Of a DNA stretch of 64,000 nucleotides, positions 7,621 through 44,317 are shown piece by piece. The stretch lies in the NCBI GenBank assembly GCA_963749075.1, contig CAVVLJ010000016.1, forward strand, positions 608,001 through 672,000, given 5' to 3'. Every line of letters starts with the position of its first letter. Within the stretch, counting starts at the first letter, position 1. The position numbers and the translations under genes were made by a program. This stretch comes from an uncultured Pseudomonadota bacterium (GTDB lineage Bacteria; Pseudomonadota; Alphaproteobacteria; JACZXZ01). The notes under the pieces were generated by a model. It saw only the letters and a program-made list of their open reading frames with translations, was not told where the DNA came from and ran no database searches.

Positions 7621-8592
7621 ATGAGCGTCATCCTGGGGAGCGGCGACTTCACCTATCGCGTGGTGGAGCAATGGGCGAGGCTGCCCGAGGGCTGGCGCTT
7701 CGGCGACGTGGCGGGCGTCGGCGTCGACCGCCGCGACCGCGTCTACGTTTTCAACCGCGGCCCCCATCCGATGGCGGTGTTCGACCGCGAGGGGAACTTC
7801 CTCGGCTCGTGGGGCGAGGGTCTCTTCCGCCACGCCCACGGGGTCCATATGGGCCCGGACGATACGATCTATCTGACCGACGACGGCGACCACACGGTGC
7901 GCAAATGCACGCTCGAGGGGAAGGTGCTGCTCGCGATCGGCATCCCCGGGCGGCCGGCACCCTATGCGAGCGGCCAGCCCTTCAACCGTTGCACCCATAC
8001 GGCACTCTCGCCCCAGCTCGAGATCTACGTCTCGGACGGTTACGGCAATGCCCGCGTCCATAAATACGCGCCCGACGGCAAGCGGCTCCTCTCCTGGGGC
8101 GAGTCCGGCGCCGATCCCGGCCAGTTCAACCTCCCGCACAACATCTGCTGCGACGCGGACGGCTGGGTCTATGTGGCGGACCGCGAGAACCACCGGATAC
8201 AGGTCTTCGACGGCCAGGGCCGCTACGAGACCCAGTGGAACAACATGCACCGGCCGAGCGGGCTCTATATGATGCCGGGTAAGTGCCCGATCTGCTTCGT
8301 GGGCGAGATCGGACCCTACCTCGAGTTCAACCGCGCCATGCCCAACCTCGGCCCGCGCATCAGCATCCTCTCCCACGAGGGGAAGCTCCTCTCGCGGCTG
8401 CAAGGCACGCCGCCCGCGGGCACGGCGCCCGGGCAATTCCTCTCGCCCCACGGGATTGCCGTCGATTCCCGGGGCGATCTCTACGTGGGCGAGGTCGCGG
8501 TGACCGCTTGGCCCCAGATCTTTCCCGACACGCCCATGCCCGACCCGTTGCGCAGCCTGCAGAAATTCACCAGGATAGCGCCCGCCCATTGA
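7621..8592 (+). CDS. NHL-repeat beta-propeller (peptidyl-alpha-hydroxyglycine lyase-like)
   Basis: YVSDGYGNARVHKY, PGQFNLPH, YVADRENHRIQVFD, FLSPHGIAVDSRGDLYVGEV. Confidence 0.9.
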   Translation: MSVILGSGDFTYRVVEQWARLPEGWRFGDVAGVGVDRRDRVYVFNRGPHPMAVFDREGNFLGSWGEGLFRHAHGVHMGPDDTIYLTDDGDHTVRKCTLEGKVLLAIGIPGRPAPYASGQPFNRCTHTALSPQLEIYVSDGYGNARVHKYAPDGKRLLSWGESGADPGQFNLPHNICCDADGWVYVADRENHRIQVFDGQGRYETQWNNMHRPSGLYMMPGKCPICFVGEIGPYLEFNRAMPNLGPRISILSHEGKLLSRLQGTPPAGTAPGQFLSPHGIAVDSRGDLYVGEVAVTAWPQIFPDTPMPDPLRSLQKFTRIAPAH

Positions 8593-8641
8593 GCCGTGCC
8601 GTCCGCGCGGCCCTTCCGCTCCCGCCAGAGGATGCCCAGCC

Positions 8642-9373
8642 ATGATCGAGCAGGATGTCGTCGTCACCACCAAGCACGGCAACATGCCGAGCTTCGCCGT
8701 CTCTCCGGAGGGTCCGGGGGATTATCCGCCGATCATCCTCTATATGGACGCGCCCGGCATTCGCGAGGAGCTGCGCAATCTCGCGCGGCGCTACGCCAAG
8801 GCTGGGTATTTCTGCATCCTGCCGGACATGTATTATCGCCTCGGCACGGTCCGCTTCGACATCCCGCGGCGCGACGACCCGATGTCGGGGGTGATCCGCG
8901 CGGCCATGAACCACCTCTCGAACGCGCGCGTCGTCGACGATACCGCGGGACTGCTCGGCTTCCTCGATGCGCAGGAGCGCGTGCGGCCGGGTGCCGTCGG
9001 CTGCGTCGGCTACTGCATGAGCGGCTGCTACATCACGACCGTGGCAGCGTGTTTCCCCCATCGCATCGCGGCCGCGGCGTCGCTCTACGGCGTCAACATC
9101 GTGACCGACAAGGAGGACTCGCCCCATCTCATCGTGGGCGACATCAAGGGCGAGCTCTACTACAGCTTCGCCGAGACCGACCCCTCGGTGCCGGACAACG
9201 TCATTCCCACGCTCAAGGCGGCACTCGACAAGGCAAAGACGAAATACGCGCTTGAGATCATGCCCGGCACCCACCACGGCTTCTGCTTTCCCGAGCGCCA
9301 GGCCTACCACGCGCTCGCCGCGGAAGCGGCCTGGAGCAAGATTGCCGCCCTCTGGCAGCGCGCGCTCGGATAG
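8642..9373 (+). CDS. Dienelactone hydrolase family protein
   Basis: MDAPGIREEL, GYCMSG (Cys nucleophile), HGF. Confidence 0.92.
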   Translation: MIEQDVVVTTKHGNMPSFAVSPEGPGDYPPIILYMDAPGIREELRNLARRYAKAGYFCILPDMYYRLGTVRFDIPRRDDPMSGVIRAAMNHLSNARVVDDTAGLLGFLDAQERVRPGAVGCVGYCMSGCYITTVAACFPHRIAAAASLYGVNIVTDKEDSPHLIVGDIKGELYYSFAETDPSVPDNVIPTLKAALDKAKTKYALEIMPGTHHGFCFPERQAYHALAAEAAWSKIAALWQRALG

Positions 9374-33979: not shown

Positions 33980-36311
33980 ATGAAACGCCTGGCGTTGCTG
34001 GTTCCGCTCCTTGTGCTCTCGCTGCCGTTGGGTGCTACGCCCGCGGCCGCGCAAGGGAACTTCATCATGCGCTCGCAGACGAACCGCACGGTCGATGCCA
34101 TCCAGAATCAGATCAGGCAGGCGGTGCGGCCGCACCTTGCGGTGCGCAATCCGGCGGGGGCCGTCGAGTCGATCGCCTTGAGCCAGGACGGCAAGCTCCT
34201 CGCCGTCGTCCTTGCCGACAACACGATCCGCGTCTTCGATCTGCAGGCGGGCGTGCAGCGCGCCCGCCTGACCGGCGGCAGGGGCCGCCTGCACGCCGCC
34301 GCGGTGACCGGCGACGACCGCTTCGTGCTGAGCGGCGGCGACGACGGCACGGTCGGCGTGTGGGATGCGGCGACGGGCGCCAAGCTGCGCGACCTCAGCG
34401 GGCACCGCGGCGCCGTGAACGCCATCGTCTCGGCCGCCGACGGCAGCGCCGTGGCGACGGCGGGGGCGGACGGCACGGTCCGCCTGTGGGCGCCGGCAAG
34501 CGGCCAGGCCCTTCGGGTGCTGAGCGGCCACAGCGGTCCCGTGCTCTCCCTCTCGTTCAGTGCGGACGGGCGCACGCTCTTGAGCGGCGGCGCCGACGGC
34601 AAGGCCATCCTGTGGAACCGCGCGGACGGCAAGCCCGAGGAGACGCTCGACGACCACGGCGGCAAGATCGTCGCCGTCGGCTTCGACAACAGCGGCCGCG
34701 GCGTCACCACGGACGAACAGGGCTCCGTGCATATCTGGGGGCAGAGGGGAGCCGGGCCCGCGCGGACCTTCCGCGGCACGCAGCAGGCCGTCGGCGCCGA
34801 GGTCACGGGCGACGGCCGCTACGTCGCGGTGAGCAGCCCCGACGGCCATGCGACGCTGCGCGACATCGAGAGCGGCCGGGTGCTCAAGGAATTCACGGCT
34901 CCCTCCGGCTCGGCGCAAATCGTCGTCGTCGACGTGCAGCGCCAGCGCCTGATCACGGGCGGCGCCGACGGCATGGTGCGCGTGTGGAACCTCGGCAGCG
35001 GCGCCAATCTGGCCCAGATCATCGCCACCTTGGGCGGCTGGGCCGTGCTCGAACTCCCAGGGCCGCTTCGACGGCTCGCAGCAAGGGGTCACCGACGTGG
35101 CGTGGATCGCCAACCAGGCCGCACTGCCGATCGACAATTTTTCGCAGCGCTACTACGAGCCGGGTCTCTTGGCCAAGGATTTCGCGGAGCGCCCTGCCTT
35201 CGCCTCCCAGCCCACGGCGGCGGTCTCCGACGGCATTTTCCTGCCGCCGCAGACCACCATCACGGTGGCGCCGGGCGGGCCCTACCAGCTTGGCCAGGCC
35301 ATCGACGTGACGGTCAACGCCGAGGACCGCGGCGGCAACATCGGCACGATTCGCCTCTTCCACAACGGCAAGCTCGTGCCCGGCGATTTCGCCACCCTGC
35401 ACGACGAAACGCGGAACAACGTCAAGGTGCGCCAGGCGGTCTACCGCGTGCAGCTCACGGCCGGCAGCAACATCTTCGAGGCCCTCGCCGTCAGCGACCA
35501 GGGCATCGACGGCGTGCCGGTGAGCGCCACCGTGACCGCACCCGGCACGCGCGCGCTCCCGACCCTCCATATCGTGACGATCGGCATCAACAAATACAAG
35601 GACGCGAGGCTCGACCTCAACTACGGCGTGCCCGACGCGCTGGCGGTGCTCAAGGCGTTCAACGTCTCGACCGCCTCCGTCTTCGCCAAGATCGTCGAAT
35701 ACCGGCTGACCGACGACGCGGCCAGCCGGCAGAACATCCTCGATCTCATGAAGGGCCTGCGCGGCGTGCGCGCGGACGACGAGGTCGTGATCTTCTACGC
35801 GGGGCACGGCGAGATCTTCAACAACCAGTGGTACCTCATCCCCTACGACGTGAACCTGGCGAGCGACGCCGACGCGGAGCGCAGCAGCATCTCGGCGAGC
35901 GAGCTTCGCGATGCCATCGTCCATATCGGCGCCGAGCGCATCATGATCTTCGTCGATGCCTGCAAGTCGGGCGGCAGCATCGAGACGCTTGCGAGCGCGC
36001 TCGACCGCAAGGTGCTGCGCGAGGTCGCGCGCGAGGCGGGCGTGGCGATCCTCGCCGCGACGCGGCGCGACCAGCTCGCGGCGGAGCTGCCCTCTCTCGG
36101 GCACGGCGCCTTCACCTATGTCGTGCTCGAAGGCCTGGCGGGCCGCGCCGACCGCGATCCCGCCGACGGCCAGATCACCGTGAGCAAGATACTGCGCTAC
36201 TCGATCGAGACGCTGCCGGCCATGACCGAGAAGCTGGGCAGCCTGCCGCAGGTGCCGGTCGCCTACCAGCGCGGCACCGACTTCGTCGTCAAGGCGGGGT
36301 TGGGGGGCTGA
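33980..36311 (+). CDS. Secreted WD40-repeat + Ig-like + caspase (peptidase C14) protein; +1 frameshift at ~35052
   Basis: Signal peptide; WD repeats (GH...SGGDDGTVGVWD, TAGADGTVRLW, SGGADGKAILW, TGGADGMVRVWN); C-terminal FYAGHG and FVDACKSG dyad, GHGAFTY, QVP; deleting one A joins the frames as LDSQGRFDGS. Confidence 0.88.
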
Positions 36312-36336: not shown

Positions 36337-37209
36337 ATGCCCGGCGGCCGTGCGCGCGCGGGTGCGCGGCACCTCGCCTCCGCCCTGATCGCGGCAGAGC
36401 TCGCACTCGGCTTGGCCGGCTGCGCCGCGGCGCGGCGGGAGCAGGCGCTCGCCGAGGCCGAGCGCATCGCGGCGCCCCACGGTCTCAAGCGGCAGCTCAT
36501 CCCGGCGGGCGACTTCACGCTCCTCTCCTATCAGCGTCTCTCTCCCGCCGGCGATGACCGCCTCGTCGTCTATCTCGAGGGCGACGGACTTGCCTGGATC
36601 AACCGCGGCCAGATATCCGACGATCCGACGCCCGAGGATCCGCTGGCCCTGCGCCTCGCGGCCGCGGACGATGCGGCGAGCGTCCTCTATCTCGCGCGGC
36701 CATGCCAGTTCGTCATGGCGAGCCATCCGCGCAACTGCGCGCCGCGCTACTGGTCGACCGCGCGCTACTCGGAGGAGGTCGTCGCCTCCGCCGGCCGGGC
36801 GATCGACCTGGTCGAGGCCGCAGCCGGCAAGCGCAAGCTCGAGCTCGTCGGCTATTCGGGAGGAGGGGTGCTGGCGGCCCTGCTCGCGGCGCGCCGCGAC
36901 GATGTGGTGCGCGTCATCGCGGTGGCGGCCGATCTGGACCTGCCGTCCTGGACCGCATACCATCATTTGACGCCGCTCGCGGAGTCCCTGAACCCGACCG
37001 ACTTCGCGGCACGGCTTGCCCGGGTTCCGCAGGTGATCTTCCTCGGCGAGCGCGACGACGTCGTGCCGCCTTCGGTCGTCCAGCACTACCGGTCGGCCCT
37101 GCCGGCGAGCGCTCCGATCGCGATCGTGCCGCTCGCGGGCTTCTCCCACGACTGCTGCTGGGTGGAGGCATGGCCCGCGCTTCTGCGCAAGGCGCGCGCG
37201 CTACCGTAG
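36337..37209 (+). CDS. Lipoprotein alpha/beta serine hydrolase
   Basis: Lipobox LAGC; YLEGDG, DPTP, YLARPCQ, GYSGGG nucleophile elbow, D(GERDDVV), H(SHDCCW). Confidence 0.85.
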   Translation: MPGGRARAGARHLASALIAAELALGLAGCAAARREQALAEAERIAAPHGLKRQLIPAGDFTLLSYQRLSPAGDDRLVVYLEGDGLAWINRGQISDDPTPEDPLALRLAAADDAASVLYLARPCQFVMASHPRNCAPRYWSTARYSEEVVASAGRAIDLVEAAAGKRKLELVGYSGGGVLAALLAARRDDVVRVIAVAADLDLPSWTAYHHLTPLAESLNPTDFAARLARVPQVIFLGERDDVVPPSVVQHYRSALPASAPIAIVPLAGFSHDCCWVEAWPALLRKARALP

Positions 37210-37222
37210 CCGGGCCGGAAAA

Positions 37223-38587
37223 CTAGAACACGATGCGCAGGTTCGCGGCGGCGACCACGTCCGTGCTGTGGGTGCGTCCCTCCTCGGTCGTGGCGACGAA
37301 GCCCGCCTTGACCTGGTCGGTCAGCTGATAGCGGAAGCCGGCGCCCACGGTCACGCCGAAGCGGCCGGTGCCGTCATGCGGGTCGGTCGTCTCGTAGGCG
37401 AGGGTGAGCGGTATATAAGGCTCGAAGTTGCCCATCGGATAGGCGGCCTCGCCGCCCAGCTTGACCGCGCTATAGTGCACCGTGGTCGGCTGCGTGCCGA
37501 TGAAGGCGGGCGCGCCGTTGTCTGGATTCTCGAGCGCGTAGACATAGCCCAAGAACCCGGTCAGCGAGAACTGGCCGACATCGTAGAAGGCGTTGAAATT
37601 CGTGGCGCCGGTATAGCGGCTCGAGTCGTAGCTCGGCGTGCCGATGACCGCGTTCGACAGCCGCGTGTAGTTGAAGAGCGCGTCGACCGTGAAATGCGAG
37701 CTTATGATGTAGGAGGCATAGGGCCCGAACTGCGCGCCGTCGGCGACGCGCGGTCCGAACATCTTCACGCTCACGTCGGTGCGGACGTAGCCGGCGCTGA
37801 ACCCGACGAGCCAGGTATTTTCGATGTTGTAGTCGACGCCCGCGAGGCCGGTGACGGTGTAGCCCTCGAACGACGAGACCGCGCTGTCGTCGCTGATGTA
37901 GGATCCCGAGCCGTCGACCCAGAAGCCCCACTTGTGATCGGGCGAGCCGGCCAACATGCCGTTATAGATGAGATGCGGCGCCTCCGACTGCTGGTTCGGG
38001 TTTCCCTTGGAGCGGGCGATGTCGCGCGAGATCGACTGGACGCGCGTGGCGATGATCGCCGTCGTCGCATCGACCTGCGAGCGCACGGTCGTCTGCGCAG
38101 CCCCTCTCACGGCGGCCGCGCTGGCGTTGCCCGTCCCCCCGAAGAGCACCGCGATCGGCCCGCATTGGCCGGAGTACGAGCCGCTGCTGGTGATCGTGCA
38201 GTTGAGCGGGCTCGTAATGCCATCGATGGTCTCGGTGCCGATGATGGTCACCGAGTTCGACGTGTTGGAGAAGTTGAACGTGCCGCTGCCGCTGTCTTGG
38301 CCGCTGACGGAGAAAGAGCCCGTCCCGTTCGTGTTGTAATTGACGGTGTAAGTGTCCCCACTGAACGAGCCGGTGAAGCTGCACATCCCGTTCCCGTTGC
38401 AGACTCCGGGGAGGGTCGCCGCCCGCGCGGGGCGATCGGAGGTGCCGAGGACAAGCATGGCGCTTGCGGCAAGGAGGAGGCTGGCGCCGAGCGCAAGACG
38501 CGAGAGGCGCGCCCTTGCGCCCCGGCGCGCCCCGAGTAGGCCGCGCCGCGCCGCGAGATGGCCGGCGCTTCCCCTTGGTCCGCTCAT
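37223..38587 (-). CDS. Autotransporter beta-barrel protein with a short Cys-containing passenger
   Basis: Extended signal peptide, ~90-aa S/G/T/N-rich passenger, linker helix, amphipathic strands (WGFWVDGSG, AGVDY, GFSAGY, PYASY, GAGFRY), C-terminal Phe. Confidence 0.87.
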   Translation of the reverse strand: MSGPRGSAGHLAARRGLLGARRGARARLSRLALGASLLLAASAMLVLGTSDRPARAATLPGVCNGNGMCSFTGSFSGDTYTVNYNTNGTGSFSVSGQDSGSGTFNFSNTSNSVTIIGTETIDGITSPLNCTITSSGSYSGQCGPIAVLFGGTGNASAAAVRGAAQTTVRSQVDATTAIIATRVQSISRDIARSKGNPNQQSEAPHLIYNGMLAGSPDHKWGFWVDGSGSYISDDSAVSSFEGYTVTGLAGVDYNIENTWLVGFSAGYVRTDVSVKMFGPRVADGAQFGPYASYIISSHFTVDALFNYTRLSNAVIGTPSYDSSRYTGATNFNAFYDVGQFSLTGFLGYVYALENPDNGAPAFIGTQPTTVHYSAVKLGGEAAYPMGNFEPYIPLTLAYETTDPHDGTGRFGVTVGAGFRYQLTDQVKAGFVATTEEGRTHSTDVVAAANLRIVF

Positions 38588-38773
38588 GGCTCCCCCCAGA
38601 TTCCAGCGAAACCCGCTTGATATCTAGTACCTAACGCGCCTTTCTCAGTCAACCTCGATTGCGGGACGAGAGAGGCCGCGTTTCCGGCTTGGCCGGGAGC
38701 GGCGGGCAGTATTTGCCCGGAAAACGGCTCGCACCCGGCGCCGGCCGCGGTGCCCCGCCTGTCGGGCGGCGGT

Positions 38774-39054
38774 CTAGAGGGCGGCGAGGAACTGGCGCAG
38801 CCGTTCGAGCTCGTGGTGCAGCGCGCCGCGATCGCCTCCCAGTCATTGGCGCGGCCCGCGCGCTCGATCTCCTCGCACACCTCGGCGAGCACCGCGGCGC
38901 CGGCCATGCGGCTGGCACCCTTGAGGCGGTGGGCTGCCCGCACGCCAGCGCCTCCGGCTGCGAGCGCCTGTGCCAAGCCAAGGCCCGCCAACCGGCGCCG
39001 ATTGCGGCCGGAGCGGCGACGCTTGCTCGGAGGCGTTTCCTGCCCGTCCGGCAT
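38774..39054 (-). pseudogene. Degenerate stand-alone Hpt domain remnant, paralogous to the kinase C-terminus
   Basis: AAHRLKGASRMAGAAVLAEVCEEIERAGRANDWEAIAA, then a frame change to ALHHELERLRQFLAAL*; compare ASHRVKGASRMVGATPLAEVCERIERAGHANDWAAIAA...LRELERLNDYLERL* at ~42905-43082. Confidence 0.75.
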
Positions 39055-39273
39055 GAAGGCTGGCGGTTTCCGGGCCGCCGCGGCGGTACGACTTTGCCGG
39101 AAAGATGGTGCCGTATCGCCGCTCGAAATAGAAGGCGGCCGCAGCGCGCGGCGCCGCCGCCTGCGAATGCAAGCGAGTAGCGACGCGCCATTGCCCCGGC
39201 TTGCACGCCGGGGCGAAGGCCGCGCGGCGCAGCCGGCGGCCGCGGAGCCCGCGATCCCCTCGGCCCGCAATCC

Positions 39274-39301
39274 TTGACACCTCGGGCGGCTCTTATAGAG
39301 T
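39274..39301 (+). promoter_or_regulatory. Putative sigma70 promoter of the hybrid kinase operon
   Basis: TTGACA-N16-TAGAGT upstream of the kinase start. Confidence 0.5.
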
Positions 39302-39353
39302 GGCCTGTACTGGATCACGCGGAAGCACAAGCTGCACCGAGCCTGGGAAGTCA

Positions 39354-43082
<3,729 letters not shown>

Positions 43083-43117: not shown

Positions 43118-44317
43118 ATGGAGATTGAGGTCCTGCGCTTTCTCGTAGCCGAAGATCACGACTTCCAGCGCCGCACGCTGGTGCGCATCCTGACCATGCT
43201 GGGCGCCAAGCACATCGCCGAGGCGAGCGATGGCAAGGCGGCGCTCGAGCTCTTCCGCGACCCCGCCCAGGCCGTCGACATCATCATCAGCGATCTCGAC
43301 ATGCCGGGCATGGACGGCATGGAGCTGATCCGCCATATCGGCGCCGCCGGCATCCCGGTCTCGATGATCCTCTCGAGCGCCGTCGAGCGCTCGCTGCTCT
43401 CCTCGGTCGAGACGATGACGAAGGCATACGGCATCAACCTCCTCGGTGCCATCGAGAAGCCGGTGTCGCCGCGCAAGCTGCGGGCGCTCATCGAGCTGCA
43501 CGAGCCGCCGCGGCCGGCGGCGGAGCGCGCCGCTGCCGCGGCACCCGCCTTCACGCTCGAGGAGATCCGGCACGGCCTGGAGAGCGGCGAGTTCGAGCCC
43601 TTCTTCCAGCCGAAGATCGATCTCGCCAAGGGCTCCGTGGAGGGAGCCGAGGCGCTGGCGCGCTGGCGCCACCCGCAGAAAGGCATCGTCCCGCCCTACG
43701 CCTTCATCTCGCGGCTCGAGGAGAGCGGCCTGATCGACGACCTCACCTGGCTGATGCTGGAGAAATCGGCGCGCTATTGCCGCGACTGGGTGCAGGGCGG
43801 CCTCGACGTCGTCATCTCGGTCAACCTCTCGCTGAAGTCGCTCACCGATACCGACATGGCCGAGCGCGTGGTGCAGATCGTGCGCGGTGAGGGGCTGGAG
43901 CCGCACCACATGGTCCTCGAGGTGACCGAGTCGGCCGCCATGACCGAGGTCGGGAAGGCGCTCGAGAATCTTGCGCGGCTGCGCATGAAGGGCTTCGGGC
44001 TCTCGATCGACGACTACGGCACCGGCTATTCGTCGATGCAGCAGCTCTCGCGCATCGCCTTCACCGAGCTCAAGATCGACCAGTCCTTCGTGATGAGCGC
44101 CACCGAGGTCGAGGCCAGCAGGGTCATCCTCGAATCGAGCCTCGACATGGCGCGCAAGCTCAGGCTGCAGTCCGTGGCCGAGGGCGTCGAGACGCGGGCC
44201 CATTGGGACCTCCTGCGCGAGCTCGGCTGCGACCTGGTGCAGGGTTACTTCGCGGCCAAGCCGATGCCGGCGGCGGATTTCGCGCCGTGGGCAAGGAGCT
44301 GGACGCCGCCCGCTTAG
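43118..44317 (+). CDS. REC-EAL response regulator, c-di-GMP phosphodiesterase (RocR/PvrR-like)
   Basis: EDHDFQR, DLDMPGMDG; FQPK, EALARW, EVTES, DDYGTGYSS, ELKID, AEGVE, QGY. Confidence 0.93.
   Translation: MEIEVLRFLVAEDHDFQRRTLVRILTMLGAKHIAEASDGKAALELFRDPAQAVDIIISDLDMPGMDGMELIRHIGAAGIPVSMILSSAVERSLLSSVETMTKAYGINLLGAIEKPVSPRKLRALIELHEPPRPAAERAAAAAPAFTLEEIRHGLESGEFEPFFQPKIDLAKGSVEGAEALARWRHPQKGIVPPYAFISRLEESGLIDDLTWLMLEKSARYCRDWVQGGLDVVISVNLSLKSLTDTDMAERVVQIVRGEGLEPHHMVLEVTESAAMTEVGKALENLARLRMKGFGLSIDDYGTGYSSMQQLSRIAFTELKIDQSFVMSATEVEASRVILESSLDMARKLRLQSVAEGVETRAHWDLLRELGCDLVQGYFAAKPMPAADFAPWARSWTPPA

Follow-up and report, generated by a model that had tools for sequence, protein, structure and literature searches.

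In a 64,000-nucleotide stretch of contig CAVVLJ010000016.1 (assembly GCA_963749075.1, positions 608,001 to 672,000 of the forward strand), which derives from an uncultured soil alphaproteobacterium of the GTDB lineage JACZXZ01 and is called the window below, a gene for a small autotransporter lies convergent to a gene for a secreted protease that combines WD40 repeats with a Peptidase_C14 (caspase) domain. From comparisons across genomes, we conclude that the autotransporter and the secreted WD40-C14 protease constitute a conserved envelope gene pair. The polar helix that follows the signal peptide of the protease is, judged from its sequence, a portable tag of about 25 residues, because the same module heads unrelated small secreted proteins. 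We tentatively favour the reading that the pair forms a conserved envelope module in which the tag of the protease docks in the lumen of the autotransporter barrel, a step that is plausible but unproven. The original prediction of such docking had started from a 23-residue likeness between the protease helix and the linker helix of the autotransporter. Its interpretation is partly supported, namely by evidence that is independent of this match.

The gene pair and the helices of its products

Only two matches to the family PF03797 (Autotransporter beta-domain) were found in this genome, one being the autotransporter of the window and the other its paralogue on contig C21. An autotransporter gene also lies near a caspase gene and an alpha/beta-hydrolase gene in four further genomes of the genus. 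Autotransporter and caspase are convergent in the window. In the metagenome-assembled genome L029 (Stellaceae), the autotransporter gene, the caspase gene after 13 bases and the hydrolase gene all lie on one strand; the order in L046 is the same, and L037 shows another arrangement. A caspase or WD40 match was located beside the autotransporter in 12 of the 25 autotransporter-centred loci of two collections. The loci named in this respect are L023–L026, L029, L032, L034, L035, L037, L044 and L046, of which L044 comprises a WD40 N-terminus only, at a contig end. The remaining loci were mostly short contigs or contained paralogue-type autotransporters (L028, L040, L042).

A class-wide sample of 401 genomes contained a WD40-caspase match in 10, from 8 genera. 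The distance between the PF03797 autotransporter and the caspase was 0.4 kb in G046 and in G121, 0.7 kb in G405 and 4.9 kb in G016. The PF03797 autotransporters of G191 are on other contigs than its caspase, none was found in G152 (81% complete), and the caspase contig of G172 measures just 4.8 kb. The sampled caspase-bearing genomes had 1–3 PF03797 matches each, and G172 had four. A genome search at order level contributed no further genomes outside the family. Related genomes are not independent of each other, and the linkage is therefore expressed in counts, with no formal p-value. Because the adjacency recurs in different orientations in genomes with few PF03797 matches, it is very unlikely to be accidental. 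This supports the original interpretation, as the two genes stay together in distant lineages despite rearrangement.

The autotransporter (454 amino acids; 37223–38587, minus strand) is an ordinary member of the classical type Va by all tested features. It matches PF03797 at residues 222–408 with an expectation value (E) of 2.4e-12 and 47.6 bits against a cut-off of 26. Its AlphaFold2 (AF2) model was built from 15 family members and has a mean predicted local distance difference test score (pLDDT) of 68.5, with helix and barrel modelled confidently. The model contains a linker (plug) helix at residues 153–193 (38009–38131, minus strand), with mean pLDDT values of 86, 89 and 80 for the 10-residue blocks that cover residues 161–190, and a 12-stranded beta-barrel at residues 220–454 (37226–37930, minus strand), which has its strands at 220–453 and ends in ...NLRIVF. 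The best Foldseek matches of the model were autotransporter translocators. Superposition on NalP (1uyn) with VIA-align gave Z 29.4 and a root-mean-square deviation (rmsd) of 2.3 Å over 260 aligned residues, with residues 156–454 of the model aligned to residues 786–1084 of NalP. Similar values were obtained for EstA, pre-cleavage EspP, Hbp and AIDA-I, for which the aligned range starts at 141–151; among the helix-containing chains of NalP, EstA, pre-cleavage EspP and AIDA-I the start lies at 149–156. With cleaved EspP (2qom) the range begins only at 177, and with the BrkA beta-domain at 214. Because the modelled helix and barrel superpose together on helix-containing translocators, the segment at residues 166–188 (38024–38092, minus strand) is located, according to the model, within the lumenal helix. 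The original prediction had likewise taken this segment as a lumenal helix preceding the barrel, which agrees with the superposition of helix 153–193 on NalP, EstA, EspP and AIDA-I. Within this segment, all 15 family members have R169, and V172, R182 and R188 are almost invariant among them.

The N-terminus of the autotransporter shows, by eye, a hydrophobic stretch and AxA-like sites. The passenger is short and beta-rich (residues 61–144; 38156–38407, minus strand; AF2 strands with pLDDT of about 52–67), and it matched no known family in the domain search. The autotransporters of G046 (L066:10886–11845) and G121 (L063, about 7785–8700) consist of signal peptide, helix and barrel only and have no passenger. 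That of G405 (L060:10594–11871) has only a short stretch before the helix and no passenger either.

The protease starts with a signal-peptide-like N-terminus (caspase residues 1–24; 33980–34051, plus strand), in which a basic n-region, a hydrophobic core and an AxA-like end (...PAAA before QG) were recognised by eye. It is followed by a polar amphipathic helix at residues 25–52 (34052–34135, plus strand), which contains the segment 34061–34129 of the original prediction and is referred to here as the tag. The tag is nearly invariant in the orthologues of the genus, recognisable in every linked lineage and present in most of the 58 inspected homologues (600–900 residues), out to Azospirillum. 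In an alignment of 50 caspase homologues, R30, Q32, A39, P50 and L52 each reach 90% conservation or more, which supports the original interpretation. The conservation of the helix window is 0.63 versus a protein average of 0.55, ranking 151st of 750 windows. An AF2 model of an intact orthologue (mean pLDDT 88.3; predicted template-modelling score, pTM, 0.85) shows repeated four-strand WD40 blades at residues 51–356 with pLDDT >90, and exceeds 90 from residue 51 onward. Residues 14–44 have pLDDT <50, though residues 25–44 are helical, and because of these low values the helix appears not to be packed on its own protein. A conserved helix that is unplaced on its own protein in the model would be expected of a partner-binding segment. 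A tblastn search with an Azospirillum homologue against plasmids, made for annotated neighbours, returned one distant match only. The paralogous WD40-caspases of L006 (G004:C242; open frame of 1478 residues) and L008 (G002:C498; 885 residues) are without the tag and have long N-terminal regions with proline-rich linkers instead.

Two small CarboxypepD_reg-like proteins of this genome likewise carry the tag directly after their signal peptides; they are encoded on contig C17 (G000 C17:1168462–1169109, corresponding to L019:8001–8564; minus strand) and contig C14 (G000 C14:27809–28543, corresponding to L020:8001–8735; plus strand). Their tags were found with E of 2e-4 and 0.77 by phmmer and with E of 1e-14 and 6e-12 by a hidden Markov model (HMM) of the tag. 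Closer relatives of these proteins have the tag as well, and it is missing from distant relatives. The signal-peptide end appears duplicated before the tag in P0009 (L019:8001–8564), P0010 and P0011 (LLGW...AQAQ twice), and is present once in P0012 and P0013. The tag profile gave 17 matches at E up to 0.001 among 1.84 billion representatives, mostly caspase-family proteins or fragments. One of these, P0159, is a repetitive protein and was taken as spurious. Three proteins from this search, P0167, P0168 and P0169 (93–110 residues), are made up of signal peptide, tag and short tail and, if complete, would be free-standing tags. The tail of P0167 is rich in proline and tyrosine.

A likeness between the two helices was detected at the level of families. 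An HMM of 39 linker columns from 15 autotransporters was searched against 38,210 open reading frames (ORFs) of the genome together with six caspases. The three orthologue caspases of the genus ranked directly after two autotransporters, with 20.8, 18.8 and 14.9 bits (E of 5.5e-4, 2.3e-3 and 0.037), and the best background ORF reached 14.2 bits. The caspase of L046 ranked 20th and that of L037 42nd, and that of L029 was unlisted. The alignment to this HMM reaches the final part of the caspase signal peptide (AAAQG versus G-t-s-q-G). When the whole caspase alignment (804 columns) was compared with the whole autotransporter alignment (431 columns) using hhalign, a single match (P 0.012) was obtained, which places caspase columns 22–49 with autotransporter columns 161–188, helix to helix. 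In the reverse direction, the best local match of tag HMMs in autotransporters is usually within the linker, though scores are low. The autotransporter paralogue was listed 13th (E 11) when the tag HMM was searched against the genome, and among 17 autotransporters its empirical p was 2.5e-4, with four others at 0.0097–0.028, nine at 0.15–0.46 and 3 unreported. The cognate pairs g1 and L046 scored better than shuffled sequences (p of 5e-4 and 0.0025). We interpret these comparisons as a weak family-level resemblance, apparently centred on R-x-Q...T...I...I, that falls short of demonstrable homology or co-variation.

The original prediction further proposed that the caspase peptide would dock in the barrel once the barrel's own helix is taken away, and this is what was obtained in silico. 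The complex of the helix-less barrel (residues 200–454, family alignment) and the 36-residue mature caspase N-terminus (six-lineage alignment) was predicted with an interaction prediction score from aligned errors (ipSAE) of 0.93 in 3/3 runs, versus 0.01, 0.01 and 0.00 for the controls. The runs shared at least 92% of contacts, with a partner pLDDT of 79 or more. The mark used was reached by 58/80 solved complexes and 2/110 mismatched pairs, a calibration that is only rough here, as own alignments were used. Peptide residues 1–26 contact alternating, lumen-facing residues on strands all round the barrel. Residues 20–21 contact the periplasmic strand ends (223, 225, 252, 260, 290–292, 300–304 and 451), and residues 10–14 contact the mid-barrel positions 326, 328 and 349. 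The C-terminus of an autotransporter is periplasmic in the usual topology. Given the contacts, the strand order and this topology, the modelled peptide reads with its N-terminus outward and its C-terminus toward the periplasm, as the native linker does. The WD40 propeller begins about six residues further on and would hang below the barrel.

The reading that we favour would thus comprise an envelope module of autotransporter and WD40-C14 protease, accompanied by a lipoprotein-like hydrolase in closer lineages. The tag of the protease would sit in the water-filled lumen of the 12-stranded barrel with the polarity of the native linker, and the WD40-caspase body would hang under the outer membrane. 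Room for the tag could be made by building the barrel around the foreign helix at the machinery for beta-barrel assembly (BAM), by cleavage of the cis helix, or by its displacement.

A broader proposal, which we regard as doubtful, is that small or passenger-less autotransporter barrels serve as outer-membrane sockets for a portable plug tag that is inserted in trans by tagged periplasmic enzymes. Tagged WD40-caspases, CarboxypepD_reg-like proteins and the very short proteins would then be tethered under the outer membrane with a surface-exposed N-terminus. If the tag took the place of the barrel's native helix, this could turn the protease on or off. Such a type-V-derived device could act in anchoring or in trans-envelope signalling, akin to the RcsF-porin complexes.

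Evidence against docking and alternative explanations

Several results weigh against docking by a linker-like helix. The caspase peptide FIMRSQTNRTVDAIQNQIRQAVR (34061–34129, plus strand) and the autotransporter peptide TTVRSQVDATTAIIATRVQSISR (38024–38092, minus strand), both translated from the window, read as originally described, with 6 identities, no gaps and a BLOSUM62 score of 24. A score of at least 24 was reached in 47 of 324,000 ungapped 23-mer comparisons between the two proteins and at least 6 identities in 1,671 of them, unrelated windows of the same two proteins score up to 35, and all 200 of 200 caspase shuffles reached the observed score. Local alignment of the two segments of the window's pair gave p = 0.16 against 2,000 shuffles. 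When each short peptide was searched with phmmer against all six-frame ORFs of the genome, the neighbouring partner was unlisted at E up to 500. The pairwise match is therefore real as written but within chance, a possibility for which the original prediction had allowed. The observation on which that prediction was built is thus partly confirmed: the sequences and the identities of the WD40-caspase and the autotransporter (PF00400, PF00656 and PF03797 matches) were borne out, the match does not stand above chance, and the caspase is not one open frame in the window.

The family-level comparisons contain opposing results as well. The linker HMM ranks the window's own caspase 52nd (E 32), the hhalign probability is 3.6%, and the neighbouring autotransporter is unlisted at E up to 200 in the search of the tag HMM against the genome. 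Only 5 of the 17 autotransporters gave an empirical p <0.03 with the tag HMM, and the 50-sequence HMM of the caspase N-terminus gives autotransporter linkers no more than 8 bits. Shuffling p was at least 0.08 in 5/8 cognate pairs and 0.058 in G046. The co-variation of pairs that the original prediction named as a check was not detected, as the difference between cognate and non-cognate likeness across 8 lineages was not significant (permutation p 0.066). Neither is the exact motif kept in all homologous pairs, since the caspase of L029 has QGQ where others have RSQ. All autotransporters examined have a cis helix of their own, and this should outcompete one supplied in trans. The genes of the tagged CarboxypepD_reg-like proteins are on contigs C17 and C14, while the two PF03797 matches of the genome are on C16 and C21. 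Their checked gene neighbours include no barrel and encode Ysc84, MlaC-like, peroxiredoxin, Exo_endo_phos nuclease/phosphatase, HD phosphohydrolase and MFS transporter proteins. There was no autotransporter among the 17 tag-profile matches, no autotransporter within the stretch fetched around the G191 caspase, and none near the caspase paralogue on G000 C2 when searched with the autotransporter-family profile alone. Structures of autotransporter barrels with a lumenal helix have been solved, and the docking pass may reflect the model's memory of, or likeness to, such helix-holding barrels. The docking controls were unrelated 36-residue proteins rather than other amphipathic helices, and the complex was modelled with the autotransporter's own helix removed.

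Another explanation, a serious possibility though not a probable one, is that the genes are functionally linked and the helices are not, the likeness being that of any two polar amphipathic helices. The caspase helix would then bind another protein, its own second copy, or its own WD40 or catalytic domain in a regulatory manner. Autotransporter and caspase would be connected otherwise, for instance if the protease acts on the passenger, or if passenger or barrel senses a signal. A pairwise match within chance, weak profile likeness and the lack of significant cognate-specific co-variation agree with this, as do the i, i+3/4 hydrophobic spacing of both helices, which is that of any amphipathic helix, the presence of the tag on proteins whose genes lie away from any autotransporter, and the autotransporter's possession of its own helix. 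It is at odds with the linker HMM, which puts the three orthologue caspases above all 38,210 background ORFs, with a sole hhalign match that runs exactly helix to helix between whole-family alignments, and with a complex model that is confident where controls fail. The helix is also very polar, which would fit a water-filled lumen better than a membrane surface. That neither the genes nor the helices are related, and the whole is pure coincidence, would accord with the chance tests of the window's own pair. We consider this most improbable, as it is already disfavoured by synteny: the adjacency recurs in several genera, in different gene orders, and in genomes with 1–3 autotransporters.

Relatives of the C14 protease family cut after basic residues. 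The R-[SA]-Q shared by both helices could accordingly be a recognition or cleavage site of the protease, a cut in the autotransporter linker would free the passenger, and the protease's own tag, like those of other secreted proteins, would serve as a substrate or pseudo-substrate. The Arg and Gln are the most conserved positions in both families (R169 in 15 autotransporters; R30 and Q32 in the caspases), the enzyme is probably active, and the gene linkage would fit an enzyme and its substrate too. We nevertheless think it unlikely, as a cut after the tag Arg would remove only about five residues of the mature protein, the autotransporters of G046, G121 and G405 have no passenger to release, and the L029 caspase is without the Arg. 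Common descent in the absence of a present function, in which a module of signal peptide plus helix was copied from a passenger-less mini-autotransporter and is now merely a generic N-terminal extension, is in our judgement decidedly unlikely. The mini-autotransporters of G046 and G121 do carry the helix directly after the signal peptide, as the caspase and the CarboxypepD_reg-like proteins do, and the linker HMM alignment does run into the caspase signal-peptide end. The low hhalign probability of homology speaks against a copied module, and the conservation of the helix above the protein average, with near-invariant polar residues in 50 homologues, points to selection on a function.

Docking of the protease tag in the autotransporter barrel thus stays our tentative preference. 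We infer that it takes place in cells, and the manner in which the cis helix makes room and the role of a tethered protease are part of the same inference. The case is worth an experiment.

The protease gene and the neighbouring genes

In the window, the caspase gene is split over two frames. The WD40 beta-propeller part (34136–35051, plus strand; PF00400, E 1.1e-40) is read in frame with 33980, and the frame of 35097 holds the middle beta-rich region and the Peptidase_C14 domain (35053–36311, plus strand). The PF00656 match (E 7.2e-12; residues 192–384 of P0007) maps to about 35574–36152. DNA alignment to the orthologues L026 and L023 revealed a 1-base insertion at 35052 (plus strand) that causes the shift, and in the orthologues of the genus the gene is uninterrupted, its open frame measuring 793 residues. 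Over 34834–35400, a contig of public run X1 shows 0 other differences and is without the extra base at 35052, which is also missing from a contig of public run X3. Run X1 is perhaps the window's own source sample, in which case it gives no independent support on this base. Because orthologues and the contigs of both runs are without the extra base, the frameshift at about 35052 probably reflects an error of assembly. A different deletion, also of one base, affects this caspase gene in metagenome contig L032.

The columns of H608 and C660 are invariant in the 50 caspase homologues, and we presume, from family motifs, that these residues are the catalytic His-Cys dyad. Because both columns are invariant, the enzyme is probably active. 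The protease also matches the caspase subfamily domain NF047832 with E 6.7e-20, which is under the cut-off of that model.

An alpha/beta-hydrolase gene (36337–37209, plus strand; PF00561, E 6e-06), the product of which has a lipoprotein-like N-terminus (...LAGC...), lies between caspase and autotransporter. The product is 48% identical to that of the gene after the caspase in L029. The hydrolase gene adjoins the caspase gene in L023–L026, L029, L032, L034, L035, L037, L046 and L061, and was not found beside the autotransporter-caspase pair in G046, G121 and G405. The spacing between hydrolase and autotransporter is 13 bases in the window versus about 2.3 kb in the other genomes of the genus (L023–L026). 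No specific family was returned from NCBIfam for the autotransporter, the hydrolase or the CarboxypepD_reg-like protein. Upstream of the autotransporter are an ORF with an Hpt domain (38584–39354, minus strand; E 2.7e-9), a large hybrid histidine kinase (39201–43082, plus strand) with SBP_bac_3, PAS, HisKA, HATPase_c, receiver and Hpt domains, and a receiver-EAL protein (43118–44317, plus strand). As the Hpt ORF and the beginning of the kinase ORF overlap, one of them may be miscalled. Elsewhere in the genome, the CarboxypepD_reg-like gene on C17 is followed by a Ysc84-domain gene.

Comparison with known systems

To our knowledge, autotransporter barrels hold only their own linker and have no lasting periplasmic partners, and we know of no function that has been established for secreted bacterial WD40-caspases. 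A literature search, limited to one library of papers, found no description of an autotransporter/caspase-homologue pair or of a linker helix acting in trans. If true, docking in trans by a linker-like helix would represent a new mode of anchoring a periplasmic protease to the outer membrane and a new way of passing information across this membrane. Passenger-less autotransporters, seemingly pointless otherwise, would gain a role, and secreted bacterial WD40-caspases a first cellular context. With two or three genes and a tag of some 25 residues, the system is small. Should docking prove wrong, the conserved pair of autotransporter and WD40-caspase and the portable tag are still undescribed as far as our searches show.

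The closest structural likeness is to the type Va translocators (NalP 1uyn, EstA 3kvn, EspP 3slj, Hbp 3aeh and AIDA-I 4mee), on which helix and barrel of the autotransporter model superpose with Z 26–29 and rmsd 2.3–2.6. The modelled position and polarity of the caspase helix would match those of the native linker. In these translocators, the helix belongs to the barrel's own chain, whereas a second, separately encoded protein is proposed as its source here. The passenger of the autotransporter in the window is tiny in comparison (about 85 residues) and is missing from the relatives in G046, G121 and G405. In the type Vb transporter FhaC (TpsB), the N-terminal plug helix H1 occupies an Omp85-type barrel and can leave it, so helix plugs can be mobile. 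That helix acts in cis, in another barrel family, and its exchange partner is a secreted substrate, not a helix resembling it.

In the prokaryotic orthocaspases and metacaspases with WD40 fusions (PMC3501461, PMC2853523), a C14 domain with a His-Cys dyad is likewise combined with WD40 repeats. The protease of the window is an ordinary C14/WD40 fusion except that it is secreted and tagged; this family differs from the known fusions by its secretion, its conserved N-terminal helix and its autotransporter neighbour.

Two known complexes resemble the proposed docking. According to PMC4942254, complexes of RcsF with OmpA, OmpC or OmpF have a segment of a separate protein in the barrel lumen, with the N-terminus outside and the C-terminal domain periplasmic. 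The topology predicted here would be similar. RcsF, a lipoprotein, is hosted by general porins or by OmpA, whereas the caspase has no cysteine (lipobox) at its signal-peptide end (...TPAAAQGN...) for RcsF-type lipidation, its segment is helical, and its host would be an autotransporter barrel that already holds a plug. The second complex is AtaA-TpgA. As outlined in PMC12523085, TpgA is a periplasmic peptidoglycan-binding protein that is stably complexed via its N-terminal part with the autotransporter transmembrane domain, and the pairing is reported in a wide range of species. The same source describes TpgA-N as a BamE-like alpha-alpha-beta-beta-beta domain that forms an A3B3 complex with the trimeric (type Vc) barrel. 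The likeness lies in an operon-encoded periplasmic partner of an autotransporter barrel, whereas one helix within a monomeric barrel's lumen is proposed here. The proposed docking would thus differ from both RcsF and AtaA-TpgA in the element used as well as in the place of binding.

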